In this document: in pieces, positions 3,558 to 64,000 of the stretch
Numbering within the stretch: the stretch's first letter is position 1
Layout: every line of letters starts with the position of its first letter
NCBI GenBank assembly: GCA_964016885.1
Contig: OZ024743.1
Span: 337,094,001-337,158,000, forward strand
Length of the DNA stretch: 64,000 nt
Source: Eledone cirrhosa
Taxonomy: Eukaryota
Direction of reading: 5' to 3'
The notes under the pieces: generated by a model
What the model was told of the DNA's origin: nothing
Seen by the model: only the letters and a program-made list of their open reading frames with translations
The model's database searches: none
Translations under genes and position numbers: made by a program

Positions 3558-3827
3558 TTATTGTGATGCAGCCCTTTGTAAGATTTGCTGGAAGCGACTG
3601 GCCACTAGTAATGATGTGTCTATGAATCGATCAACACAGTTTGAAATGCAAGTCTCTGTACGACTGTCCATCTTATCGCGTGGTTTATCTAAGCATGTGT
3701 CCCAACAGATATCTGTCAGTTTGTGAATCTGGCTCTGGAATTGTGCCTTCGCCTGTTCCTGTTGCAACGCTGCTTGCAGTTCTTTGTCATTGTCAAGTTT
3801 TTTGCTATCAAAGTCAAATGATGACAT
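3558..3827 (-). CDS. TIMM8: Mitochondrial intermembrane-space small Tim chaperone Tim8 (89 aa)
   Basis: MSSFDFDS...QIHKLTDICWDTCLDKPRDKMDSRTETCISNCVDRFIDTS contains the twin CX3C motif and Tim8 signature residues. There is an AG acceptor at about 3954 and a minus-strand AATAAA at 3321-3326. Confidence 0.95.
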   Translation of the reverse strand: MSSFDFDSKKLDNDKELQAALQQEQAKAQFQSQIHKLTDICWDTCLDKPRDKMDSRTETCISNCVDRFIDTSLLVASRFQQILQRAASQ

Positions 3828-5897
3828 CTTTCTTGTTCTTTGGTCAGAATTAGATGATAAAGTGAGAGAAAAAAAAATCGAAGAAATTTGATGATGTCCT
3901 TTGATATATTTCTCAGTAATCAAATTATTCACAATGATGTTAATCTATGCAATCTGGAAATAAAAAAATTATAATTTTAATCCTTTTATTTTATTAAAAC
4001 AATAAAAATAAAACTGACAATATGAATTTCTCTCATAAATGACATAAGGTGTATACAGTGTTGAAACCAATAGAAATATTATATCATCACAGTTTAATGT
4101 CTATTTCCCAAGCTTGTATTGGTCAGACGGGTCGTCATGTTCTGAGACCAGACTGATCAGGTTACCATGTCTTGCTCATACATTTGATTTTAATTGCTTT
4201 CTATGGTTGGATGCCATTCCTAACACCAACCACTTTACAGTATCTATTGAGAGGAAGGTTACTATGGCAGATGCTTTTCCTAACACCAACCACTTTACAG
4301 TGTGTACCGGAAGTATGGTTTCTATGTCTGTATGCCTTTCCTAACACCAATCACTTTACAGTGTGTACTGGGAACATATCATGTCTCGGACACTACCACC
4401 TTCCTTCTAGTATATATAGAACTAAAGCTGTACAAATTTAACATTGCACAAGGACTATATGATAACTACAACCACTTCTCAGTGAATGATCAGTTCCCGT
4501 CTCACTGACTGCAAAGGATTAGCAAAGACTAAAAAGATATGAAATAAGTATGATATCAGCGTGCATGAACAACATAGCATAAAAGAGCTGAGAGAAAAAC
4601 TCAGTAAAAGAGATAGTACAAGAGAGAAGATTGCGCTTGTATGAACGTGGGACTAATATGGATGAAGACAATTGTATAAAGTGTAGGGCACTTAAGTGAT
4701 GAATAGGATCCATGGAAAAGGAAGACATGGGATAAAGTAATAAAGGCTTACAACATAGATAACTGTAACAATTGATGACTAGTGGTGTTAGTTATGACAT
4801 ACCTAACATGAGTTAAACACACCATATGTCCCCTTTAACTCTATTCTCCTTTCATTTCTACAGTACTATCTGCTATTCTTTATTCCTGTCCCCACCTCGC
4901 TACCACACCCTACATTCTGGAAAACATGTAATGAGGTGTGACATCTGCCTCACTACACCATACTATTATAACACACCAAACTACACCATACCACACTACA
5001 CTTTACTACACTACACCGTATCACATCATACCACACTACACTACACCTTATCACATTACACTACACCACACTCAGTTTTACTGTCATCATATCTGTACCT
5101 TTCCACATTACCATACATTAGTTCTCTAATTTATTCCACACTACCCTATTTTACCTCACTATTCCCCTCTGCATTACAAAAAGGCCACACACACACACAC
5201 ACCAAGTATTAGTGCCAATATAAAATACACTTGGTACTCTTCATGTCGTAGTTGACATCCAGCCTATAAAAGAAACATAGACCTGACAATCTCCCTAGTG
5301 CTGGTGCGATGATAAAATGTACCTAGTGCTTCTGTAAAGTGGTTGGTGTTCGGAAGGACATTTGGTCGTAGAAACAATACTTCCAGTATCTGCTGTAAAG
5401 TGGTTGGTGTTAATAAGGGAATCCAGCCGTAGAAACCATACCAAACGGTTGGGAGGACACTTCAATTGTGTCAAGGTCACAACAAACTCCCTTGTATTGG
5501 TGCCACAATAAAATGCAACCTGTAAAAACCATGCTCCACAAAGGGTTCGGAGGACACTTTAGTTGTATCACACAACCCCCCTAATGATTTTGTTTCGATA
5601 AAATGCACCCAGCACACTCTGTAAAGTGGTTGATATTAGGGCGCCCAGCTGTAGAAAACATGTAAACGAGGCGTTGTTCCAGGTCCTTCTGTGAGGACAG
5701 TAGCTCCAATTAAACATTCTCTTGGGTTAAGACTTCAATTAGATACTCCAATTAAATGCTGATTAGACCGAACTTGATAATGATGACAATGAGTAGGGCA
5801 AGTGCGCGTGTATGCGGTCATGGCAATTACATCGTGGAAGGTTAAGTTACTTGCTAATCAAGTACAACCCAATATATATATATATATACGCACACAA

Positions 5898-11110: not shown

Positions 11111-40543
<29,433 letters not shown>

Positions 40544-44060: not shown

Positions 44061-44187
44061 GGACTGCATTAAGTAGTAAGTTTAATTGAAAGCGCACGAA
44101 AAGAACGAAAATATTATTTCCCACTGAAATCGGTGAGGTGTCTCTCAATAATATCAAAAATAGTAATACTTTCTCTCTCTATATATA

Positions 44188-44319
44188 TGTAGTGACCTAC
44201 ATTCCGCGGGCTCACATACATTCTCTGTGCGTGATTTGTCTCAGCTCAGCCAATCAGCGCCAGTAGAAGAGGATGTATCCCTACGCGTCCTGAGGGAGAA
44301 ATTACCCGCGAAGATTTGA
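44188..44319 (+). mobile_element. Truncated 5' LTR-like repeat
   Basis: Starts TGTAGTGAC after a TA run. It matches 45611-45723 apart from a 19-nt indel and a few substitutions, and contains a CCAAT box. Confidence 0.8.
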
Positions 44320-44338
44320 TCTTAAAGTCAGGAATTCC

Positions 44339-45508
44339 TCATGAGTTCCAGCAGTCCTGGGCTTCTGATATAGCCTCGTTGAAGGCTTGGCCTAGGGTTC
44401 CCGATCTAACCTTGGTCAACTGATTCTTTCTGAATGTCGATATGAAGCTGGACGGATTTGGGTACTGATCCAAAAGCTGGATCATCAGTCCAGCTATCAT
44501 GTATCCTGCATGTTTAGTATCTGCCAATGCTTCATCTGGAACAAAGTGGTGCTTGTATGATTTGGACCGGAAGGCGACTCTGAAAGCAAGCGCATCCATG
44601 AGTGCGCCTTCCACATGTCCCGGCTCTATGTTCTTAGAATTAATAAACCGTTTGTCTTTGTCTAGACATCCTATCATACCAAAAAAAGTGTGGAGGTACG
44701 GGTTCGATCCTGCGGAAAATACACATTTCTTGATTAGTCCCAGGGACTTTTGGTAAGGGAAAATCCCTGTATCTGATGCTCCTGCACTTAAGGATTTTAG
44801 CACTCTCATGGTCTCATTAACTCCTGCTTCATTGACCACCAAACAAACCAGATCTGTTATGGTTAGGTTGAGTGTATCTCTGAAATGATCAAGCACCTCT
44901 ATGATATGCATCCCTTCATATCTCGCCAATATGGTCCCCCTTCTCAGCAGCGACAGATCATGAGTGTTATAACTGTAAAGGAAATAATCTATCGCTGCCA
45001 TTACTTGAAAAACCTGATCGTTCCTGACTATATGGCTCAGGGCACCGTTGAGGAGCATGTCCTGGTCGTATCTGTATGGGTGCGTCATGCGATGATTATT
45101 GAAGGCCTTGATTATGTTTTGCTTATAATCCCCCACCTCCAGACCGGTGCCCGCATTCTCCACCTTGTAAAGGGTGACTATATAAAGCATTAGCCCGTGG
45201 TGGTGATTTTGGGTGGAGGTTGTTGCGGTTGGTGTGGGGAAGCTGGCATCTTCGGTGATGTTGAAGAAGTCAGCAAGGGTAACTGACTCTTTCTGTCTGA
45301 TAAAGTCATAGTTTTGGAGATCAGTATTTATATCAAATTTGAGGTAGGACTGGCAGTATTTGATCATGAAATGTAGGACATGTTTCGGGAGCATCTCCTG
45401 AGTGTTGGCTTTTGTCAGAATGAAATCATGTGCTGCCTTGACATCCCCTCCAGAGAAAATGGTTATCTGTTGGGGCTGGAACACCTCATTTTTTTTTCTT
45501 GCATGCAT
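44339..45508 (-). CDS. Endogenous viral element: rhabdovirus-like nucleoprotein N (389 aa from first ATG, intact, intronless)
   Basis: VMAAIDYFLYSYNTHDLSLLRRGTILARYEG...LDHF...IFPYQKSLGLIKKCVFSAGSNPYLH...KRFINSK is collinear with vesiculovirus N as recalled from memory (IVAAVDMFF..FKKH..ASFRYGTIVSRFKD...SYMPYLIDFGLSSKSPYSSVKNPAFH...TRARNAR). Confidence 0.85.
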   Translation of the reverse strand: MHARKKNEVFQPQQITIFSGGDVKAAHDFILTKANTQEMLPKHVLHFMIKYCQSYLKFDINTDLQNYDFIRQKESVTLADFFNITEDASFPTPTATTSTQNHHHGLMLYIVTLYKVENAGTGLEVGDYKQNIIKAFNNHRMTHPYRYDQDMLLNGALSHIVRNDQVFQVMAAIDYFLYSYNTHDLSLLRRGTILARYEGMHIIEVLDHFRDTLNLTITDLVCLVVNEAGVNETMRVLKSLSAGASDTGIFPYQKSLGLIKKCVFSAGSNPYLHTFFGMIGCLDKDKRFINSKNIEPGHVEGALMDALAFRVAFRSKSYKHHFVPDEALADTKHAGYMIAGLMIQLLDQYPNPSSFISTFRKNQLTKVRSGTLGQAFNEAISEAQDCWNS

Positions 45509-45592
45509 CCTTCTGTTCAATTATTTTTTAAACTGATGTGCTCTTTCAGCATTTGTTCTTGCTGATTCAATAATCTGTATCGACTACCGTCT

Positions 45593-45607
45593 AGGAGGGG
45601 AGGGGGG
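45593..45607 (+). other. Polypurine tract immediately 5' of an LTR-like repeat
   Basis: AGGAGGGGAGGGGGG, then TAT, then TGTAGTGAC. Confidence 0.75.
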
Positions 45608-45610
45608 TAT

Positions 45611-46573
45611 TGTAGTGACATACATTCTCTGTGCGTGCTTTGGCTCAGCTCAGCCAATCAGCGACAGTAGAAGAGGATGTATCCCTACGCGTCCTGAGGG
45701 AGAAATTACCCGCGAAGATTTGAAGAATCTCTCTCTCGCACCAGGAACCTCGAACCAGCAACCCGTACAACATGTGACGGTGAGATTTTGCACCTTAGCC
45801 TGCAGGCTTTCCGGCGCAATGGCACATTCCCTTTTGTAACCTCATTTTTATGTGTAACTTCAACCATACAAGTTAACCAACATTATTTGTGGGTGGATTT
45901 TATTGGCAGTATTGGTAGAGGGTCGGACGCCATGCTTTCTAGCATAGTTACGTCCCTTTACGATCTGAGTTCAAATCCCGCCGAGGTTGACTTTGCCTTT
46001 CATCCTTACGGGGTCGATAAAATAAAGTATCAGTAATGCACTGGGTAATTGCTGGCCTTGTGCCTAAAGTAGAAACAATTATTTGTGGGTGGATTGGCAG
46101 TATCGGTAGAGGGTCGGACGCCATGCTTTCCAGCCTAGTTACGTCCCTTTACGATCTGAGTTCAAATCCCGCCGAGGCTGACTTTGCCTTTTATCCTTAC
46201 GGGGTCGATAAAATAAAGTACCAGTAATGCACTGGGTAATTGCTGGCCTTGTGCCTAAAGTAGAAACAATTATTTGTGGGTGGATTGGCAGTATCGGTAG
46301 AGGGTCAGACGCCATGCTTTGAAGCATAGAGTTACGGCCCTTGCTATTCTGAGTTCAAATCCCGCCGAGGTTAACTTTGCCTTTCATCCTTACGGGGTCG
46401 ATAAAATAAAGTACCAGTAATACACTGGGTAATTGCTGGCCTTGTGCCTAACGTAGAAACAATTATTTGTGCTACAACAAAAATAAAAATTACGTTTCAT
46501 CTCTAATTTCTGCTGTTGACATCATTATTATGTTACTCGTGTCTCAATAACATTTATACACCATGCTGCTAAA
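45611..46573 (+). mobile_element. 3' LTR-like sequence interrupted by a SINE triplet (right end uncertain)
   Basis: TGTAG start after the PPT, a CCAAT box, and AATAAA at about 46482 after the SINEs. Candidate ends are CTACA (46476), ...AACA (46552) or CTAAA|TATA (46573), the last of which would match the TATA preceding 44188. Confidence 0.6.
45890..46470 (+). mobile_element. Three head-to-tail tRNA-derived SINEs
   Basis: Each ~190-bp unit has an A box (tggcagtatcggtaga) and B box (gagttcaaatcc). The units are separated and flanked by ATTATTTGTG. Confidence 0.9.
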
Positions 46574-46576
46574 TAT

Positions 46577-46714
46577 ATATTCATTTATTATGTCTATTGG
46601 TGAGCTTTATCGCTCTGGAGTTTCACCTGCGCACTCATAAGATCACCGGTCTTGTCTGGTGAGTGCGCGGGTGAGACTCCAGAGTAACGAGGCTTAGCCA
46701 TAATAAATGAATAT
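46577..46714. repeat. Nested inverted repeat / hairpin (MITE-like)
   Basis: Outer 16-bp arms (atattcatttattatg / cataataaatgaatat) and inner 25-bp arms (ctctggagtttcacctgcgcactca / tgagtgcgcgggtgagactccagag). Confidence 0.85.
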
Positions 46715-48059: not shown

Positions 48060-51000
48060 ATACAGTCATACAGTCACAATTTTATTCACAGTTGTATAAA
48101 TAACATTACAAATCGTTTGCAACTCTTTCAGAATGAAAATATAAACAGAACATATGAATAAATTTACAGTAGAATAACATAAATATGTTTTAAATATATA
48201 TACATAAATAACAATACAAATGCTTCGACAACATTATAAATTGCTCGCGATTCTTTCAGAAAGATATATTCTTTTAATGTTACAATATTAAAGAAAATGT
48301 AAAGGAAGGGGTGAACAACCGAGCGAACACCAGAGCAAAAGACAGCAGCGAGGGGTACTGGGCAACCTCTCTAATGATTTTTGAGGCAAGCCAGCCCACT
48401 CGCAGCGTTGCCTCGGGTGCTGGCGAGGCTGATGCGCTGAAACAGCCAAGCGCCCTCGCGAGATTCGCCAGATTCGCCAGCTACCTCTATTAGGCGAGCC
48501 GCCAGTGAAGAGAAGAACCTCGCAGTCAGCGTCTCGAAAGCCACAGGCTGAATAAAGGAAGCTGTGGCTCTCGTCCTAACCGCAGCATCCAGGATGTGGG
48601 AAAGCGCAAAAGAGTCACTAACAGTGACGTCCCAGAGAAGGCACCTGCCTCTTGACCAGGAGCACAGGGTAAAGCTGTCAGGTCTTTTGCCGTCACTTCT
48701 GGGCAGCCCAGATGGTTCCAAGACTGAGGGGATATTCGCCCAGGCCAAAGCTCTCTTCAGAATGAGGTTTAGCTTCGTGTGACGCACGAAGCGGCCGGCA
48801 TTCAGGCGGCAAGAAAGACTGTGGAGTCGAGGAGTTTGTCGCATCGGCACCTCAAACCCATGCAGACGTCAGCTCCCACTCTGAGGGCGATGGAGACAGG
48901 AAGTTCGTCCAGGCTGAGTAGGCCACCGACGTTGGCCACGGGTAGGGCATCAACCCAGTCGCCTGAGTATTTGGCGCTGGCAGATAGTAAGCGGCACCTT
49001 CAAACTGATCTGACTGGACGAAGAGAGAGTCGAAGGTAGCCTTCGAACTTATGCTGTCCTAAGTTCTCTGACTTCGACTGTCCTCCACCTTTTCAGGAAG
49101 AGACAAGCCCAACTCACTCCATTGCTGGAGAGCTTCACCCGACTCCCTGATGGAACTAGTCCATGTTGGAGAGGAGAGGTTGCTGCTCACCAAGGTGGAG
49201 GAAAGGAAGCAGGGGAGAGAGAGGGACGAACACTTACGAAGACCAAGACCCCCAAATCGCATGGGCAACGCAGCCTGATTGCGGGACTCTGGAGAGAGTC
49301 TAACATTGACCAGGCACTCGAGTCTCTCGAAGGTTAGGTCGTCGAAGTGTTGGAGGCAGGACGGAAATCTGTGAGAGGGGCTGACCATGAGCAGATACAG
49401 AAGCTTAGGACTAGTCAGGTAGTTCCTGAATATGAAGAAACCTTGATGAAGTTCGATAATTTCGATATTCCTCAGCAGCTGCTCAAGGCCAATCATCTTT
49501 GATTGGAAGATTGACTCGAAGGCAAGGTCTGTGTTGGGGCTCCTAAGGAACACCAAGCGGACAGGGAAGGGACCGCGATGCAAGGGAAGGACTCTGCCAA
49601 CATGTCGATTAGCTGTTGGTGTTGAGAAGCCGGGTGGTTGAGGATCCAGAGCTGACATTTGGAGCTATTGACCTGGGGACCCCAGCGGCCAAGCTCCTCA
49701 ACCATTTTGTTGGCAGTGGCGAGAACCATATCTGGAGTTCCCCCCAAACAGGCGTCGTCGAGGTACCAGACATTGAGGTCCAACTCAACCCCCATCTTGG
49801 TGACGTCATCAATGCCCAGTGCAAACAGAGCGGGCCCGAGAGGGTTACCCTGTTGGACTCCTGAGGCAGAGGTAATGATTTGGTCACCGAAAGAGAGGTA
49901 GGAGGGCTCCTGATAAGCCTGCCAAGCAAAGTGGTAGAGTTGTGAGACCCTCTCTCTTACTGAGCCGAGGACGATGTCACAGCTGACGGAGTTGAATGCA
50001 TTCTTGAGGTCAAGTTTGAGGATGACCTTGAGCGATGAGGAGGGCAAGTTGGTAAATGCTCTGGTAGCGTGGACAGCAGCCTCACATCCCAACCTGGTAC
50101 CCACCCCCAGCTGGATAGAGGAAAATTCCTCTGCCAGTGAGTCGGAGGCCAACAGCAAACACGCCTTTGCAGTGAGGCGGCGAAGAGTCCAGCCAACCAC
50201 AATGAGGCGCAGGTCCCTGTTGGGCTTGGTGAGACCAAATAGCTTCGCACCGAAGAACTGGGCGGATGAACGGGAGAACGTTCACTGAAGAGGACTGATT
50301 CACAAACCAAGTCAGACTCTCCTAGACCTCGAGTACGGCGTCACCGGCCGATAAGGAGATACCATCCTTGAGGTGTTGAGGATGAAGGCCGTCAATTCCC
50401 GTGCCTGACACAGCGGGGAAGGATGAAATCGCCTTTCTGATGATATCGGGGGTGTAAACCAGTTTCAAGTATTCTGGTGGTTCGGGCCAGTGTAACTGAT
50501 CATCTGGGGGTGCCGATGGGTGCTTCTCTTTCAGTCACTCAAGAGAATCAGAGTTGCAAGGAGCAAGGGGGGACAGAGAAGAGAGGAGACGGACAGCCCC
50601 TTTAATGTCAAATTCGCTGAATTTGGCATTGACCGCTTGCTTGAGGTCTACCGGTTGTCTGTTGGTGGACACCGAGCTCGATGTCAAACTGAGATGAGAC
50701 GTGGTTGGGGTGGACTCAAACAGCTGGAACTTCCGCTTGAGAGAGGACGTGAGGGAACCCGAATTCTCATTGTGCACGTGAAGAGAGATGAGGGGAAACA
50801 AAAACAAATTCTGCCAGTCATACATATTGTTGGATGAGCAAACGTTTTCCAATAAATTAGAGAGGGCACGTGCAAAGCTATTCCGAGCTCCCTTAGGGAT
50901 CCGGTTAACGAGCTTTGATTTGGAGAAGCCCTGGAGGGCTGTGACAAAGTCCTCGATAGAGAGTTGGTCATCGAAGCGTGGGGCATCCCCACGGAATATG

Positions 51001-51750
51001 TCGGAGCTGAAATGGCACCGATTACAGGTCCAGTGTTGAAGCCTTTCGGCTTGAGCTTTGGTGATGCCGACACAGCTTCTGTGGTAGCTTGCGTGGCATA
51101 GGTGACATTTAATTGTCTTTAAGTACCGGCTAGTGCGGGCACAGAGAGCGCAATCAGGTGGTGGGCTGGCAGCAGCTGGGTGTAGAAGGCCAGCGTTGGA
51201 ATTCGGTGGAGGGAGTGAGTCAGTAAAGGAGGCAGCAGTGGTTCTAACGGTGGGACTAGAGAGGAGGTTGGGTGGTGAGCTAACAGTTGTAGGGGTGGTG
51301 TGGTTGGCTGGGTTCGATTCGTTCGGAATCTGCCGTGAAGAGGAGGTGGGGGAAAGTTAGCTCCTCTTGTGCGTGCCAAAGTTGGTGGAGAATGAGAGAT
51401 CTAAGGCTGAACGGTTGTCACATAGTCATTCCACCAAGCAGGTCTCTTGGTCGTTCGACACATGCCACCGCCACCTAGAGTGGACTAGGCTAAAGTGGTG
51501 GCAACTTTATAATCGGTGATCGCCAGTGATAGTTCGGTCGAAACATCGGGCCACCGACGGGTTGAACGAAGACATAGGTGGGCTGTGCGCGAGGACGAAG
51601 TAAGGGGTGAGCAAGGGGAGGGATAGAAAGTGGAGAAGGAGGGGAGAAGATTATGTGTGCGTGGAGAGGAGTGTGGTCATGTGAGAGGCAGGTAAATACA
51701 GTAGGCGAGAAAGAGCAATGAACATGCAAAGAAGTACAAAATCTAAGGCT
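48060..51750 (-). mobile_element. CRE-clade non-LTR retrotransposon (RT + restriction-like endonuclease), frameshifted
   Basis: RT motifs QLGVG...GCEAAVHA, LDLKNAFNSV, GVQQGNPLGPALF and WYLDD; LPMRFGGLG; RLE motif KRPD...LLWDVT; C-terminal WLFQRISLA..RGNA; N-terminal RIPKGAR. Ends are approximate. Confidence 0.88.
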
Positions 51751-53572: not shown

Positions 53573-55487
53573 GTAAGAATCATTGAAACACTACTTTATA
53601 TAGCTATTTTGGAAATTCTATCTTAACCCTTTTTATACCAACTCTCCCAAAATCTCTGGTTTTAAGAAACAGAACTACCCATTTTAAAAGATTCCTCCTT
53701 AAATAATTGTTTCTACTTTTGGCACAAGGCCAGCAATTACCCAGTACATTACTGGTGCTTTATTTTATCGACCCTGTAAGGATGAAAGGCAAAGTTAACC
53801 TCAACAGGATTTGAACTCGGTCCGTAAAGGGACGTAACTATGCTAGAAAGCATGGCGTCCAACTCTCTACTGATACTGCCAGTTCACTGCAACCTTCCAA
53901 CATAATTTATATGAGAACATTTGTTTATGTTACAAATATCATCTTAATGAAATTATAATTTTACTAAATACTTCCCAAATCCTTCATTAATTACTTAACC
54001 CTTTTAGCAGTTTAAACTGGCCATATCCTGCCAGAATTCTCTCACCTCTTTCTGTTCAAATCGGTCATAACTGACCACTCATACCGATGTTAAGGTATTG
54101 TTCTCAAAATAAATATCGAAATCTTGTAGATTCGATATTATGTAAGTAATTTTGTAAGATAAAGTCTTTTCTGTGAAATACAATTGTAAATATAGAGTAA
54201 TGTGAATGCTAAAGGGTTAAAATACTAAATATTTCATGAAAAATATGTCAATCAAAGGGTTATTTAACCTTTTCATTGACATATTTTTCACTAATGTTGT
54301 CTATAACTACTAACTCAAATTACTGGAGACTGGACAGTAAGGGAGATTTGAAAATTATATGATACACTGTATAGCATATGAGTTAATCTTGCAGTAGCAA
54401 CATTTTGAAGTTAAAAATCACCTCGCTCTACATTCCTAGGTCAAATCCTAGCAAAATCAAATTTGCCATTCATCTTTTCTAGGCTGATAAAATAAAGTAT
54501 CTGTCCAGAATGGTAGACATAATTTGTCACTTCCATTTAATATTGCAACCTGGTCCTTGAATGGTTTTAGCAGTGTCCACTGACGCAAACATTTGGGCCA
54601 GATCTCCATTTTGAGAATCAATCTCTCTCCCTTCTACTAGTCTTGGAGAACTTGAAATCTGTTGTGATCACTGCTCCCCCCTCCTCCCCAACACACACAC
54701 AACTAAGCAGTAAAACTTTTTCTATTTAGATGTTTCAGTCCAAATTAATTTTACATTATACTCAGTAGGATCAGATGTAAATGAGTTACATTCTGCTGGC
54801 CCATCTGAGCACTTAGTAGATTGCAAGATGTTCACATACATAGACCACTCAATAGGGTCATTAGATTCACTTGAGTAGCAACCTGATTTGTTGATGACCC
54901 ATATTAATTGGTGATTTATACGATCAATGTACCCAATACACACTGTTAAGTGGTTGGTGATAGGAATGGCATCCAGCCATAGAAAGCTTGCCAAACAAAG
55001 GGTCGGGAGGACTCTTCAGTTGTGTTAAAGACATGTCTACCTCCCTAGTGTTGGTAATCTATGCGATAAATGCACCCAGTATATACTGCAAAGTGGTTGG
55101 TGTTAGGGCATCCAGCCATAAAAATCTTGCCAAACAAATGGTTAGGAGGACCCTCAGTTGTGTCAAAGGCATGACAACCTCTCCTGAACACTCGATGGAA
55201 CATGAAACCATACATAAGCACAGAGGTCCTTGGCTCTGCTTCAGTACTGACTTTGTCTATATGGACCCATCAAACCCTTGCTAGCAGGGAAAGTGGATTT
55301 TGATCTAATGATGATGATAACACTGATGTGTATTTTTCTTCTTTAGAGCTAATCTGATGCTGTCTGTATTAAATAACCAACACTACTACATTTCAACACT
55401 CACTTATTGTCTATTTTTTCTTTTTAATCCTTCTCTATCTTACTGCCACTCCATTTCCCATCTATTCCCATGTTATTCTTCAAATAG

Positions 55488-55974
55488 AATGGCTTTTTGT
55501 GAAGATGGCGAGCTGTGGAGATTGTTCAAGAAAGCTGAGACAAGCCTTTTCAACTTTAGATTCCAATGTATGAAACCCGAAGAGCTCTGTTGTTCCCTTA
55601 AACCAGTTTGGAAATCTGCAGCAGCACTCTCAATGAAAGAAAAGAATATAAAACAGTTATCTTTTGAAGGTGTGTTAAAAGTCTTTACAAACATCGCAAA
55701 TAGCTGTGGTGGTTCATGGTCCAGTGTCATCAACAAATATTATTCTGGGTGTAAAACAGACTACTTTCGTGTTCCTTTCATATATGTCTTAAAGATGGTA
55801 TCTGAAAGGCGAGTGTTGCTTGAGCGAGGTGATGCTCTGATTCAGTTCTGTAGACTGCATCATGTCATGACATCACTCTTTGAGCTTATGCTGGAGTCCA
55901 GTCGGCACCAATTTCAGAAGATCCTCGAGAACCTCATTGACGAAAGAATTGAGAGGCTGTTCCTTCATCTCCAG
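55488..55974 (+). CDS. PRIM2-like coding exon 2 (gene continues, probably beyond the window)
   Basis: The phase-2 splice gives HFILR-MAFCEDGELWRLFKKAETSLFNFRF (PRIM2: LAYC..EELRRWF...E..L.RFRF), followed by YFRVPF..VL.MVSERRVLLERGDA; donor CAG|GTAA. Confidence 0.85.
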
Positions 55975-56427
55975 GTAAAAATATGTACAGTTTCACCATC
56001 TACCGCATGATTCTTCTCTTTTTCTCTTTTGACAGCTCACACCTATGCAGGTTTAGCTGGCCTCCTCCAAGGTATATCTCGTTGGAGGTGTCTTGGGTAA
56101 TTTAATGATAGGGACTGCAGTCCCTATCAACTCATTTCTACAGCTGAGTAAACTGGAGCAACGTAAAATAAAGTGCCTTGCTCAAGGAAACAACACATCA
56201 CCCGGTCCGAGAATTGAACTCACAACCTTTCAATTGCAAGCCCAATGCTCTAACCACTAATCCATGCGCCTTCATAGCATGATTGGACTGGAGTGTCTGA
56301 TTTTCTTCATCCACTTATTGACACCAACACGAGGTGGGGTGTTGTCATGTCGTTGACACAACTAAGATGTTAGTTAGTTCCTATATTTTGTACATCAACC
56401 TAAATAAGCAGAGGAAATCTGTATTCA

Positions 56428-57885: not shown

Positions 57886-58480
57886 TACTCTGAGTGCATG
57901 AAGGCATGTGACCCAGTAGCGAGGGTGTTGGATTCACAACCATAAGGTTGTTGGTTCAAATCCTGGACCAGTTGGAGCATTGTGTTCTTAAGAAGATACT
58001 TCTATTCATATTGTTTTTCATGATAAGGCACCCAAGAAACCTCCTATGAGATGCAACCTCACAGGAGGCCAACTAAACCTGCATATGAGTGAGCTGTAAA
58101 TTTCATTTCATTTTTCATTTTTGATAGTTTGAATGTCCAGTTAAGAACACCTTTGAACATAAGTCTGCTCAGTCAATATTAACTGAGTAAAGTGCAGTGC
58201 TCAACAATAACTAACAAAAATGTTTTATTTTTTTAAAGTGGAAAATGCAAAAATTGAATAGGAAAGTACTTTATACCAGTGAATGTGAAGTTAGAGTATT
58301 AGACTGCTGGCTATATAGGAATAAGTTCAATATGTGGCCTGCTGTGCTGTACCTTGGACTTGAACTATAGCCTTGGGTTGACCAATGCCTTGTGAGTGAA
58401 ATCTGGTTGATAAAAACTGTGTGAGAGCCCGTCATGTTTGTTTGTATGTGTGTGTGTGTTTATATATATATATACATGTA

Positions 58481-58513
<33 letters not shown>

Positions 58514-58515
58514 GT

Positions 58516-61040
58516 ACAATATAGAGGAACAGTGGGAATTCCTGAAAGCAAATCTGCTGAAGGCAGCAGATGATGTCTGTGGCTGGAGCAGGCCTATAGG
58601 CAGGAGGAGAGTAACGTGGTGGTGGAACAGTAAGGTGGAGTCAATTAAGGCCAAAAAGCAGGCTTGGAAAGTATGGCGGGATGGGGGAAGTAGAGAAGAC
58701 TATCAAGTGGCCAGGAGGGAAGCTAGGAGACAAGTGTACTTCGCAAGAAGGGAAGCAGAGGAAAGAAAGTTCAAGCATGTTCTACAACGCGAGGACCAAA
58801 AACGTGAGGTGTTCATATTGTTAGGCAATGTGTCAAGGAAAACTGATATTGTCGGGGAGAAGTGTGTCCTTAATGATGATGGTGTACTTGCCATCACTGA
58901 CGCTGATAAGAAGGTAGCTTGGAAGTGTCACTACAAAAGGCTAATAATTGGGAGAAAGACAGTCTCCCCCACATCGATCCAATAGAGGGACCAGCAGTGT
59001 TAGTTGAAGGTAGTATAATAAGTAAGGCAATCAAAGATATGAAGACGGGTAAGGCGGCTGGGCCTTCGGAAATAGTTGCTAAAATGCTGAAAGCATCTGG
59101 AACGGTGGGACACACTATGGTCACCCAGATAGTAAACCAAGTCATACAGAATGGGGTCGTTCCGAAGGACTGGCATAGCAGCATCACCATTAACTGCTAC
59201 AAGGGTAAAGGAGATGCCCTAGATAGGGGTAACTATAGAGGCATTAAATTCATTGACCAGGTCATGAAGGTCACAGGAAAAGTAATAGCGCAACTAATCA
59301 GAGAGCGAATTGATCTAGATGAAATGCAGTTCGGGTTTGTGTCAGGTAAAAGTACCACAGATGTTCTTTTCATTGTACGACAACTACAGGAAAAGTACCT
59401 AGCTAAAAGTAAACCCCTATACTTAGCTTTTGTTGACTTGGAGAAAGCCTTTAACAGAGTCCCCTGCTCCATTATCTGGTGGGCTCTTAGAAAACTAGGT
59501 GTTGATGAATGGCTTGTGAGAGCTACACCAGCCATGTATAAAGAAACAGTCAGCAAGGTTAGAATTAACAACGAATATAGTGAAGAGTTTAGCGTAAAAG
59601 TTGGTGTTCATCAGGGCTCCGTGTTTAGCCTCCTATTATTATTGCCCTTCAGGCTATAACAGAGGAGTTCAAGACCGGCTGCCCATGGGAACTGCTATAC
59701 GTAGATGATCTAACGCTCATAGCTGAATCAATGGCCGAACTAGAGAAGAAATTCCAAATATGGAAGCATGGCCTAGAATCAAAAGGCCTTAAAATTAACC
59801 TGTCTAAGACTAAAGTTCTAGTTTGTAGTAAGGAAAATAGGGCACCAGTCCCATCTGGGAAATGGCCATGCTCAGTGTGTAGGAAAGGAGTAGGCAGAAA
59901 CTCCATTTTATGTTCCAAATGCAAAGTCTGGGTGCATAAAAGATGTAGTGGGATCACAGGTAAGCTAACTAAGAATATAGATTTTATATGTGGCCGGTGC
60001 TCTGGTGCAATAAGTAGCAGCAAGTGCCCACAGAATACTCGCTCATTCCATTGCACAGATGGTTCTATAGAAATAGTGGACACCTTCCGTTACCTGGGTG
60101 ACAAAATCAGCAGTGGTGGAGGGTGCTCTGAAAGTACAGTAGCTAGAGTCAGAACGGGATGGAAAAAGTTCAGAGAGCTTATACCACTATTGGCCGCTAA
60201 AGGGTTCTCTCTAAAAATGAAAGGCAGGCTGTATGATGCCTGCATACAAACAGCAATATTGCATGGCAGTGAGACCTGGGCATTGTGTGCAGAGGATATA
60301 TGCAGACTAGAGAAGAACGAAGCTTGCATGCTCCGCTGGATGTGTAATAGTAATATACGTGAACGGCAAAGCATAAACGAACTAAGGAAGAAATTAGGAA
60401 TAAGAGGGATCAAATGCTATTTACTCGAGAGAAGACTACGTTGGTACGGTCACGTGATGCGCATGAAAGACGACAGCTGTATAAAAAAGTGCAGGGCAAT
60501 AAAAATAGACGGTAGCCACGGAGTAGGCAGACCCAGAAAAACCTGGGACGACTTGCTAAATTCCGACCTCACACACTTACACCTCTCCAAGACAATGTCA
60601 CTGGACCGAGATCTTTGGTGCTACACAGTAATACAGAATACCCGCCTTGCGTAAGTACAAAGCGAAAGCTACAGTCAGTAGGCACCTCTAAGAACCCCCC
60701 CCCCCCCCCACTACCCCCACCCCATCCACACCACCCCTTTCAATGTAAAGTTATGTTGGCACCACATCATCCAGTCCGAAACAAATGAGGTCGTGTAGGT
60801 GTCATGACAAAAAAACACACAGTCCACGCTGTAATGTGGCTGTGTAGGTAACATGGTAAAAACCTCCCAGTTCACACTGTAAACGTGGTTGGTGTTAGGA
60901 AGGGCATCCAGCCATAGAAAACCTGCCAGACAGTCCTATACGAGCGAGACGACCAATCTTGCCTCAAGTGGGAAAATTCCCGTCCAAACCCATGCAAGCG
61001 TGGAATATGGACGTTAAACGATGATGATGATGATGATGAT
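58516..61040 (+). mobile_element. RTE-clade LINE, second subfamily, 5'-truncated with frameshifts
   Basis: RT motifs (AFVDLEKAF, GVHQGS, LLYVDDL), RRLRWYGHV, GRPRKTW, a 3' UTR and a (GAT)n tail. Confidence 0.95.
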
Positions 61041-61227: not shown

Positions 61228-64000
61228 ATTTTCGAGGGTTTCTCTTAGTAGCTTTTTCATGTCGTTAATATTATGATGTTCCCTGCTGTATTAGCGTTAA
61301 ATTTTCCCTGCTGTATTAGCGATAAATTTTCGAGGGTTTCTCTTAGTAGCTTTTTCATGTCGTTAATATTATGATGTTCCCTGCTGTATTAGCGTTAAAT
61401 TTTCCCTGCTGTATTAGCGATAAATTTTCGAGGGTTTCTCTTAGTAGCTTTTTCATGTCGTTAATATTATGATGTTCCCTGCTGTATTAGCGTTAAATTT
61501 TCCCTGCTGTATTAGCGATAAATTTTCGAGGGTTTCTCTTAGTAGCTTTTTTCATGACGTTATTATTGTTAATTTTACTGATGTAGTATTAACTTATTAA
61601 CTTGGATATTTACCATGCGGTATTCTAATCCTATTGTATCTCTCTCAGTTATTTACCATGCGACCCTCAGTTCCTACCCCCCCCCCCCCTCTATGCACTT
61701 CTTTAAGGCTTACTACCCTGTCTTTAACCTAATTCATTCAATATGAAAATATTGAAGAGATAAGACACTTTGCCATTCTTCTCTGCTAAAATGTACCACT
61801 AGAGCTGATTCAAATTTTCCCAGCCAGCCATCCACCTAATCTACGAAGGTATTTTAGCCTACATATTGTCGTTAATATTATGATGTTCCCTGCTGTATTA
61901 GCGTTAAATTTTCCCTGCTGTATTAGCGATAAATTTTCGAGGGTTTCTCTTAGTAGCTTTTTCATGTCGTTAATATTATGATGTTCCCTGCTGTATTAGC
62001 GTTAAATTTTCCCTGCTGTATTAGCGATAAATTTTCGAGGGTTTCTCTTAGTAGCTTTTTCATGTCGTTAATATTATGATGTTCCCTGCTGTATTAGCGT
62101 TAAATTTTCCCTGCTGTATTAGCGATAAATTTTCGAGGGTTTCTCTTAGTAGCTTTTTCATGTCGTTAATATTATGATGTTCCCTGCTGTATTAGCGTTA
62201 AATTTTCCCTGCTGTATTAGCGATAAATTTTCGAGGGTTTCTCTTAGTAGCTTTTTCATGTCGTTAATATTATGATGTTCCCTGCTGTATTAGCGTTAAA
62301 TTTTCCCTGCTGTATTAGCGATAAATTTTCGAGGGTTTCTCTTAGTAGCTTTTTCATGTCGTTAATATTATGATGTTCCCTGCTGTATTAGCGTTAAATT
62401 TTCCCTGCTGTATTAGCGATAAATTTTCGAGGGTTTCTCTTAGTAGCTTTTTCATGTCGTTAATATTATGATGTTCCCTGCTGTATTAGCGTTAAATTTT
62501 CCCTGCTGTATTAGCGATAAATTTTCGAGGGTTTCTCTTAGTAGCTTTTTCATGTCGTTAATATTATGATGTTCCCTGCTGTATTAGCGTTAAATTTTCC
62601 CTGCTGTATTAGCGATAAATTTTCGAGGGTTTCTCTTAGTAGCTTTTTCATGTCGTTAATATTATGATGTTCCCTGCTGTATTAGCGTTAAATTTTCCCT
62701 GCTGTATTAGCGATAAATTTTCGAGGGTTTCTCTTAGTAGCTTTTTCATGTCGTTAATATTATGATGTTCCCTGCTGTATTAGCGTTAAATTTTCCCTGC
62801 TGTATTAGCGATAAATTTTCGAGGGTTTCTCTTAGTAGCTTTTTCATGTCGTTAATATTATGATGTTCCCTGCTGTATTAGCGTTAAATTTTCCCTGCTG
62901 TATTAGCAATAAATTTTCGAGGGTTTCTCTTAGTAGCTTTTTCATGTCGTTAATATTATGATGTTCCCTGCTGTATTAGCGTTAAATTTTCCCTGCTGTA
63001 CTAGCGATAAATTTTCGAGGGTTTCTCTTAGTAGCTTTTTCATGTCGTTAATATTATGATGTTCCCTGCTGTATTAGCGTTAAATTTTCCCTGCTGTATT
63101 AGCGATAAATTTTCGAGGGTTTCTCTTAGTAGCTTTTTCATGTCGTTAATATTATGATGTTCCCTGCTGTATTAGCGTTAAATTTTCCCTGCTGTATTAG
63201 CGATAAATTTTCGAGGGTTTCTCTTAGTAGCTTTTTCATGTCGTTAATATTATGATGTTCCCTGCTGTATTAGCGTTAAATTTTCCCTGCTGTATTAGCG
63301 ATAAATTTTCGAGGGTTTCTCTTAGTAGCTTTTTTCATGACGTTATTATTGTTAATTTTACTGATGTAGTATTAACTTATTAACTTGGATATTTACCATG
63401 CGGTATTCTAATCCTATTGTATCTCTCTCAGTTATTTACCATGCGACCCTCAGTTCCTACCCCCCCCCCTCTATGCACTTCTTTAAGGCTTACTACCCTG
63501 TCTTTAACCTAATTCATTCAATCTGAAAATATTGAAGAGATAAGACACTTTGCCATTCTTCTCTGCTAAAATGTACCACTAGAGCTGATTCAAATTTTCC
63601 CAGCCAGCCATCCACCTAATCTACGAAGGTATTTTAGCCTACATATTGTCGTTAATATTATGATGTTCCCTGCTGTATTAGCGTTAAATTTTCCCTGCTG
63701 TATTAGCGATAAATTTTCGAGGGTTTCTCTTAGTAGCTTTTTCATGTCGTTAATATTATGATGTTCCCTGCTGTATTAGCGTTAAATTTTCCCTGCTGTA
63801 TTAGCGATAAATTTTCGAGGGTTTCTCTTAGTAGCTTTTTTCATGACGTTATTATTGTTAATTTTACTGATGTAGTATTAACTTATTAACTTGGATATTT
63901 ACCATGCGGTATTCTAATCCTATTGTATCTCTCTCAGTTATTTACCATGCGACCCTCAGTTCCTACCCCCCCCCCCCCTCTATGCACTTCTTTAAGGCTT
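61228..64000. repeat. 98-bp satellite with higher-order organisation (runs separated by a repeated ~310-bp spacer)
   Basis: cgagggtttc recurs with period 98. The spacer starting gacgttattattgttaattttactg occurs at about 61556, 63339 and 63846. Confidence 0.96.

Follow-up and report, generated by a model that had tools for sequence, protein, structure and literature searches.

LTR capture of viral RNA is already known from mosquitoes and from the mouse. In Aedes aegypti, rhabdovirus EVEs, mainly of the nucleoprotein (N) and G genes, lie beside Ty3/gypsy elements, and the available text of the reports describes recombination by copy choice in the course of reverse transcription, a flavivirus EVE with an LTR and gag on its flanks, a shared polarity of EVE and LTR for 543 of 614 LTRs, and piRNAs produced from clusters (10.1101/127498, PMC6797480). 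In the LCMV-IAP recombinants of mice (Geuking et al., as covered in the review PMC3205384), recombination between RNA-virus RNA and an LTR element, carried out by the RT of the element, yields a product that integrates; these events were somatic and experimental, and the accessible part of the review mentions no inherited copy. Anakin is a hybrid of a Pao element and a chuvirus glycoprotein gene in which the viral gene lies inside the LTR boundaries and has spread by retrotransposition; the accessible text describes an autonomous element with an env-like gene, one or few captures and high amplification (PMC7642597). Members of the CsRn1 clade of LTR elements (PwRn1, AgCR) have a tRNA-Trp-type PBS, a 4-bp target duplication and TGT...AAA termini, with a CHCC Gag in relatives (PMC2582038), and the clade occurs in 9 of 12 cephalopods (PMC6238403); viral cargo is not mentioned in the available portions of these two papers.

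An integrated unit in the octopus Eledone cirrhosa, lying in a 64-kb window (the whole stretch of DNA analysed, 64,000 nucleotides), resembles each of these systems in part. As in Aedes, N is joined to LTR-retrotransposon sequence, but the window unit and 6 of the 8 captures in its LTR group (7 of N and one of L) are antisense to the element, whereas same polarity predominates in the accessible Aedes data, and the octopus captures are dispersed units with target duplications, three of the chimeras existing in more than one copy. The likeness to LCMV-IAP lies in an integrated product of viral RNA and the RT of an LTR element, which in the octopus is germ-line, inherited and repeated. Like Anakin, the unit holds a viral gene between LTRs and has been recopied; in contrast, it has no gag-pol, carries an antisense truncated N, exists in two copies and is one of many independent captures, so that the Anakin-type combination of gag-pol plus viral gene, two full LTRs and many copies is not found. 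The mollusc host, the antisense polarity and the recopied chimeras look new. No cephalopod or mollusc LTR capture of an RNA-virus gene was found in titles and abstracts of a literature collection that lacks most subscription papers, and the accessible part of PMC12548735 does not mention octopus. Given these limits of the literature, and since UniRef labels an Octopus bimaculoides protein as containing a rhabdovirus N domain, octopod rhabdovirus N inserts may already be listed.

Positions 44188–46573 of the window form a single integrated LTR unit flanked by a 4-nt target duplication, with the following features:

44184–44187: left target-site duplication, TATA (4 nt), repeated at 46574–46577
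44188–44319, plus strand: truncated 5′ LTR, the first 132 of ~400 nt of the non-autonomous LTR family A, 96–99% identical to 16/16 virus-free copies
44313–44319: probable microhomology of 7 nt where LTR and virus meet, an exact match to the LTR and a match at 6/7 nt to the homologous N 3′ UTR in locus L043
44320–45483, minus strand: rhabdovirus N-derived segment (profile and fold matches), antisense to the element, running from ~codon 39 to ~10 nt beyond the viral stop
44339–45508, minus strand: chimeric ORF of 389 codons plus stop, with a transposon-derived start, a viral body and a frameshifted end
45484–45592, plus strand: family A 3′ internal region, present in 16/16 virus-free copies, giving the ATG of the ORF on the opposite strand
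45593–45607, plus strand: polypurine tract, with a small duplication in the window copy
45611–45891, plus strand: first part of the 3′ LTR, with a 19-nt deletion near its start
45892–46471, plus strand: three head-to-tail copies of a 191-nt SINE-like repeat, a later insertion into the 3′ LTR
46472–46573, plus strand: last part of the 3′ LTR, with its AAA end
46574–46577: right target-site duplication, TATA, pairing with 44184–44187

The sequence-only reading had placed a repeat at 44188–44319, a purine tract at 45593–45607 and a second repeat from 45611 onward, and all three lie there, the last ending at 46573; its stop-free minus-strand frame of 389 codons (44342–45508) also stands, and inspection of the unit (44188–46573) likewise finds no gag, pol or PBS. 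No tRNA genes are found in the 64-kb window. Because the site is TA-rich, the TATA duplication is weak by itself, and the 4-nt rule is backed by the GAAC/GAAC of a twin copy described below and by perfect duplications at 6/9 virus-free family A copies. Leftward of the 45484 boundary, 16/16 virus-free copies run on in non-viral sequence. The 3′ LTR measured ~400 nt before it was split by the SINE-like triplet, which is flanked by a 10-nt duplication (45882–45891 and 46462–46471); the 191-nt repeat is very abundant, and it is taken for a putative SINE from a box-B-like motif and its abundance rather than from a library match.

The viral part comprises 1,164 nt of N, and a stop-free frame of 393 codons has a chance of ~5e-11 at the stop frequency of the window. 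The ORF is confirmed as rhabdovirus nucleoprotein-derived (PF00945), as had been proposed from its motifs: it scores 81.2 bits against the profile (E 9.6e-23; curated cut-off 26 bits), the family signal is found in 0/14 control genomes, and 12/12 PDB sequence matches are rhabdovirus nucleoproteins (VSV N at E 4e-9). A two-lobed N fold is predicted for the product by an alignment-guided model with a pLDDT of 88.8 (39 for a single-sequence model), which is not independent of the homologue search because the alignment consisted of rhabdovirus-like matches. Foldseek pairs this model with VSV N at E 1e-13 and with rabies N at TM 0.74–0.76 (TM ~0.7 to VSV and rabies N overall, the structural comparison suggested by the earlier reading), and with other Mononegavirales at only E ~1e-3. 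The window N has its fold and core residues in common with VSV, rabies and almendravirus N and is ~26% identical to the best named virus among the matches listed.

The gene is not intact, contrary to its first description. DNA from 45484 rightward belongs to the element, so the ATG and the first 8–9 codons are accidental, supplied by the antisense strand of the transposon; by eye, other copies show ~38 further codons at the N-terminal end that the window copy lacks, and neither the native N-terminus nor the native C-terminus of a full-length N gene is found. Against the twin, the window copy has two small deletions, one of 18 nt in frame near 44521 and one of 19 nt near 44360 that shifts the frame and alters the C-terminus, and the twin has a 16-nt deletion that likewise shifts its frame. 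The argument that an intact frame must be recent or selected is therefore not supported, both copies having independent indels that include a frameshift each. In VSV N the N-terminal arm is required for oligomer contacts, so that any protein product would be abnormal.

Judged by its sequence features, the shell is an abundant non-autonomous Gypsy family of CsRn1 type for which a gag-pol partner exists. Virus-free family A copies, drawn from a first look at the 3.0-Gb genome in which 40 of 2,210 candidates were scored, are ~2.3-kb elements without a long ORF; their ~400-nt LTRs are 93–98% identical within a copy, start with TGT and end with AAA, and the 4-nt duplications are perfect in 6/9, have one mismatch in 2/9 and are absent in 1/9. 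After the 5′ LTR, the virus-free copies and relatives have a primer site of TGGTGACC type that agrees with the tRNA-Trp-type PBS consensus in the accessible text of PMC2582038; the window unit itself has none. The LTR architecture proposed in the sequence-only reading is borne out by the paired LTRs, PBS, purine tract and duplications of virus-free copies, the repeat acting as an LTR elsewhere in the genome, and a gag-pol element with the same LTR was also found: one of the 12 gag-pol elements fetched from 146 scored matches (L090) carries the family A LTR at 95%. In L090 and in L086, RT, RNase H and integrase stand in Gypsy order. The CHCC Gag motif is complete in 2 of the 4 elements tested (L086 and L089), has its last Cys changed in L091 and is partly deleted in L090. 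The TGT...AAA/ATA termini and 4-bp duplication of the CsRn1 clade are found in the window unit, the twin and the family A copies; family A shares the tRNA-Trp-type PBS as well and differs in being a non-coding 2.3-kb derivative that carries N. The label is kept to 'CsRn1-type' because CHCC is complete in only 2/4 Gags and the assignment is based on termini, PBS, duplications and domain order. A Penelope or LINE 3′ end was considered for the repeat and ruled out by the paired 400-nt repeats, PBS and duplications, and a LINE-made processed pseudogene of EBLN type was rejected for the insert, both viral ends joining LTR-element sequence with neither poly(A) nor a longer duplication there.

The exact left junction occurs at two places in the assembly. 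The twin, at 74.85 Mb of another contig (C5), has both window junctions, unrelated flanks, its own GAAC duplication and two LTR copies that are identical over 132 nt. The sequence-only reading had left a choice between a one-off recombinant and a mobile non-autonomous family and had proposed a genome-wide count; the twin bears out recopying, but the scale was underestimated, the same LTR group having captured N at least 7 times independently. N is found at 11 loci genome-wide, which reduce to 9 independent junction sets, and 7 of these together with one L-gene capture lie inside the LTR group: the window and twin (family A), L043 and L044 (B), L045/L050 (C), the C28 array and L049 (A), and L046 (D). 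A BLAST library of the group places 6/9 N captures within 100 nt of it, and L046 was added through family D. In controls the library covers 449 of 200,000 nt in 20 arbitrary 10-kb loci and lies within 100 nt of 16/1,720 mock inserts; it was seeded from elements beside viral inserts and lacks family D, yet the binomial figure counted L046, and the comparison therefore rests on 6/9 versus 16/1,720. A SINE inside one library element, which inflated the control to 25/100, was removed from it.

The two remaining N loci (L051 and L082) have no LTR-group neighbour, nor do three of the four L-gene loci, which are degraded; these 2/9 N captures and 3/4 L loci speak against the LTR-group route. The largest L locus lies antisense within a gag-pol element, and the count of L loci is at least four, the search having been stricter. 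A putative P ORF is assigned by position and junction signals and has no Pfam match. Only about the first half of N is present in the C28 array, which is better interpreted as two variants joined in a dimer, with tandem duplication afterwards; the suggestion that its N diverges faster than the adjacent transposon DNA was discarded, divergence being equal (16/696 in N, 26/1,084 in the transposon).

Within this one genome, the N copies are 53–96% identical to the window protein and mostly have saturated synonymous sites, which indicates that several viral lineages were captured. An exhaustive HMMER search found protein relatives of N, while none of 2,774 candidates from a word-index protein search and none of 4 from a viral-contig scan were related; among the matches listed, the closest non-octopod one has at most ~32% local identity and the best named virus 26%. 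In a FastTree phylogeny of 27 sequences, an analysis also suggested by the earlier reading, the N copies group with sequences from O. bimaculoides and Argonauta hians and one unnamed sequence in a clade with support of 1.0; the tree uses 18 of 150 listed matches, has weak inner branches and leaves out L051 and L082. The L piece has 45–52% identity to animal rhabdoviruses of many genera, none of the 120 matches listed (of 221) being close, and may come from the same viruses as the N copies. The sequences show that octopods host an undescribed rhabdovirus lineage of which fragments have been inherited.

What is seen directly comprises the anatomy of the unit, its target duplication, the parent family with its gag-pol partner, the twin and the repeated captures. 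The proposal of an RT-made virus-retrotransposon chimera is supported. We put at roughly 0.8 the probability that the endogenous N fragment was made in a CsRn1-type Gypsy particle and inserted by the integrase of the element; an RT template-switch origin of the chimera is very likely, and, given that origin, the switch probably took the plus-strand/mRNA route. In an infected germ cell, viral RNA would have been packaged together with RNA of family A. Plus-strand synthesis, starting from the purine tract, would have halted 132 nt into the LTR and, through the 7-nt match, jumped onto the 3′ end of N mRNA, which would then have been copied backwards to give antisense N behind a truncated 5′ LTR, before a second jump returned synthesis to the minus strand of the element, 127 nt short of the 3′ LTR. 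With its two outer ends intact, the chimera would have been inserted by integrase, and it would have been recopied at least once with helper proteins. One template class, positive-sense viral RNA, could account for sense and antisense captures alike, minus-strand jumps giving sense inserts with normal 5′ ends and plus-strand jumps giving antisense inserts in which the 5′ LTR is broken and the 3′ LTR intact.

The sister loci supply the junctions on which this scheme draws. The truncated 5′ LTR is joined directly to N in 4/6 antisense captures, with stubs of 132 nt in the window and twin, ~181 in L043, ~178 in L046 and 23 in the C28 repeat units, and this arrangement recurs in families A, B and D. 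The junctions of L043 and L050 fuse a gene-end A-run to a T-run of the element. The two sense captures (L044 and L049) start at a gene-start-like motif that is also present at the N–P junction, and L044 has kept its 5′ LTR whole, together with the primer site and gag. The N segment of L046 takes the place of the remainder of the 5′ LTR and rejoins the element at a second PBS-like motif; an exact rejoining at the PBS was considered and dropped, the point lying ~40 nt further 3′. An ACG-starting stretch at C28 was likewise rejected as viral leader, being high-copy transposon sequence, as is an apparent gene-start there. The L-gene junction has no clear gene-start motif. The junctions of the window are not at mRNA ends, one lying in the 3′ UTR and one inside the coding region, so that its template is deduced from the sister loci; L045/L050 span a gene junction and would need read-through, antigenome or genome RNA.

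An assembly artefact or contaminating viral RNA is exceedingly improbable. One of the three junctions is without read cover, the LTR/N junction at 44319 being spanned by no read or contig among those listed; but the unit stands in a 379-Mb contig (C4) beside host exons, its two copies have distinct target duplications, degraded relatives occur at 9 other loci, and related N sequences are annotated in two other octopod genomes. Moreover, in 4 examined runs of the 6 listed, RAD reads from DNA libraries of three other individuals extend from 45505 into N (12, 7 and 5 molecules), X1 possibly being the assembled sample, and one contig covers 44730–45513 without differences from the window; on the short side, the cover of the two junctions other than 44319 is 22–30 letters, below the 31-letter standard. 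Among the 15 joints listed, with 572 others beyond these, there is no empty-site joint. A more serious competitor, still rather unlikely, is that the template switch of RT took place in minus-strand synthesis, onto negative-sense genome RNA, and that a microhomology jump to plus-strand strong-stop DNA then completed the 5′ end. Such a template yields the same final anatomy and explains why multi-gene antisense inserts have their gene junction intact (L045, L050), but junctions at gene-end A-runs or gene-start motifs are not expected from it, and the apparent leader end at C28 is transposon sequence. Rhabdovirus genome RNA is, furthermore, encapsidated and hard to access. The mRNA route therefore remains the preferred one, and the remaining alternatives concern what befell the chimera after its formation.

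Window and twin N differ at 31 of 1,148 positions, 17 synonymous and 14 non-synonymous (dN/dS 0.24), and their transposon parts at 16/614, an equal overall divergence. A neutral synonymous fraction of 0.25–0.29 is expected from the family's own ts/tv of 1.5, against 17/31 seen (P 3e-4 to 3e-3, and 0.013 under the most extreme mutation bias tried). Scaled to the transposon rate, 17 synonymous changes compare with 7–8 expected (P ~0.01) and 14 non-synonymous changes with 18–22 (P 0.14–0.33). The C28 dimer has 10 synonymous and 4 non-synonymous changes with codons aligned to the window (excess P 0.007–0.03), or 10 and 7 once indel-adjacent N-terminal codons are counted, its non-synonymous changes falling below the transposon rate at P ~0.025; the L045/L050 pair has 7.5 synonymous and 9.5 non-synonymous changes and no excess over its transposon part (20/677). 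About 21 of the 31 window–twin changes lie on the twin (by eye), which, given its identical 132-nt LTR copies, has P ~0.008 if the changes followed insertion (a hand estimate). These tests are post hoc with small counts, and homogenised transposon parts and past host selection could mimic the excess. Synonymous change in excess of the host rate suggests that the source was viral, through recombination with related viral RNA during recopying, and such recapture of live virus is our tentative preference for the same-junction differences, at a little under an even chance.

Past selection in an intermediate copy is possible but considerably less probable, neutral copying with chance a little less so again, and independent captures at the same junctions improbable. 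A specific form of the selective account, in which the N frame was kept for a time by host purifying selection as a domesticated, perhaps dominant-negative N, would fit the low dN/dS, the still open window frame, the N/element junction in 3/3 other individuals and the low non-synonymous rate of the C28 pair; it is nevertheless improbable, since selection could raise dS above neutrality only with homogenised transposon parts, whereas the window/twin synonymous changes lie above the transposon rate and the non-synonymous ones are not significantly low, and the N-terminus is missing, the start codon accidental, both copies frameshifted and C28 limited to about half of N. The twin might instead have arisen at the DNA level, either because gene conversion carried the N cassette into a different element of family A or through duplication, with later change neutral and the bias due to chance or mutation. 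Equal divergence in N and transposon parts, the L045/L050 pair and the choice of tests after the data were seen favour this account, which is doubtful all the same: the unrelated flanks rule out segmental duplication, and the 17/31 synonymous changes, the synonymous-rich C28 pair (10/14) and the concentration of changes on a twin with identical LTR copies all count against it.

The unit is most likely a decaying by-product. The first exon of AFG2 that could be matched stands at 40543 (minus strand), and the unit lies ~3.6 kb upstream of it; since 26 residues of the AFG2 protein from O. sinensis find no match, a further upstream exon is possible, in which case N would be sense in host pre-mRNA. 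In the AAA-ATPase exon next to the unit, identity is 75% to O. sinensis and 69% to A. hians, which points to an octopod host, in keeping with the probable cephalopod of the sequence-only reading. The 5′ LTR fragment is without most of the LTR, so that no promoter is evident. If active, it would be a source of antisense RNA against N mRNA rather than of a protein. PIWI proteins and piRNAs are expressed in soma and germ line of molluscs, according to the accessible text of PMC6128900. Any element-sense transcripts would be antisense to N mRNA, and a small-RNA role is thus plausible. A putative antiviral role of this kind is nonetheless unlikely, and a putative protein role very unlikely. Equally conjectural, and less probable than the small-RNA role, is a self-updating viral memory, in which antisense-N shell RNA would pair with incoming N mRNA, be packaged with it and recombine, each insertion being refreshed and yielding antiviral antisense RNA.

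Whatever their function, the captures are junction-level fossils of an LTR retrotransposon turning RNA-virus transcripts into inherited DNA, and because several independent events have one anatomy, the strand and template of capture become testable. They also reveal an octopod-associated rhabdovirus lineage with repeated germ-line infections, of relevance to cephalopod health. If it is true that same-junction copies hold different viral variants, endogenous viral sequence would be renewable from live virus, and such renewal would bear on the debate over accident versus adaptive immune memory outside insects.

The nucleoprotein (N) insert of the window and that of its twin, the second copy of the chimera with identical junctions and unrelated flanks, carry 31 substitutions relative to one another over most of N, whereas window positions 44320-44567 contain none over 248 nt. 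This substitution-free stretch, which was spotted post hoc, may be a recombination tract. The LTR of the non-autonomous shell (family A) has itself served as an insertion site: the SINE-like repeat at window position 45892 recurs at or near LTR position ~285 in five of the 16 virus-free family A copies, and this recurrence suggests that the repeat has a target preference for the site near position 285.

Elsewhere in the genome, viral sequence extends beyond N at two loci, and both contain N, a gene junction and further ORFs:

L050:4265-6746
L045:4163-5690

In both loci the junction that follows N consists of an A-run, CT and AACTC, with more ORFs beyond it. Judged by its position, the ORF beyond N is a putative P, for which no Pfam match was found. 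The ends of L050 differ: one carries a piece of family A LTR, the opposite one an LTR of family C. L045 is bordered on both sides by a 102-nt duplication.

The polymerase gene has also been captured. At L077+L078 (G000:C3:130.160-130.165 Mb), ~4.9 kb of rhabdovirus L lies antisense in a CsRn1-type element, between the end of the element's pol and its 3' LTR, and two short L segments are present twice in the insert. In a further N locus, L047+L048:3400-13400 (G000:C28:117.475-117.485 Mb), five N-element units of 1,796 nt each stand in tandem, an array best read as a two-variant dimer plus tandem duplication.

Around the chimera, the window holds host genes and other repeats:

11114-40543, minus strand: multi-exon AFG2/SPATA5-type AAA ATPase gene
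3558-3944, minus strand: intronless ORF with twin CX3C motifs, presumably Tim8-like
55327-56010, plus strand: exon, likely coding, from a further host gene, which we take to resemble NEPRO
441-1980, 19831-20685, 23927-24682 and 58425-60654: fragments of a single LINE family, assumed to be RTE-like
48371-51356, minus strand: decayed non-LTR retrotransposon with RT and a PHD-like Cys/His motif, identified by eye
28802-30025: 90-nt minisatellite
34049-35830: 82-nt minisatellite
61228-63350: 98-nt minisatellite

Two of these LINE copies, one at 19.8 kb and one at 23.9 kb, lie on opposite strands and have near-identical translations.

Annotated N relatives are found in other octopods, namely the sequences P0002, P0003 and P0005 from Octopus bimaculoides and Argonauta hians.
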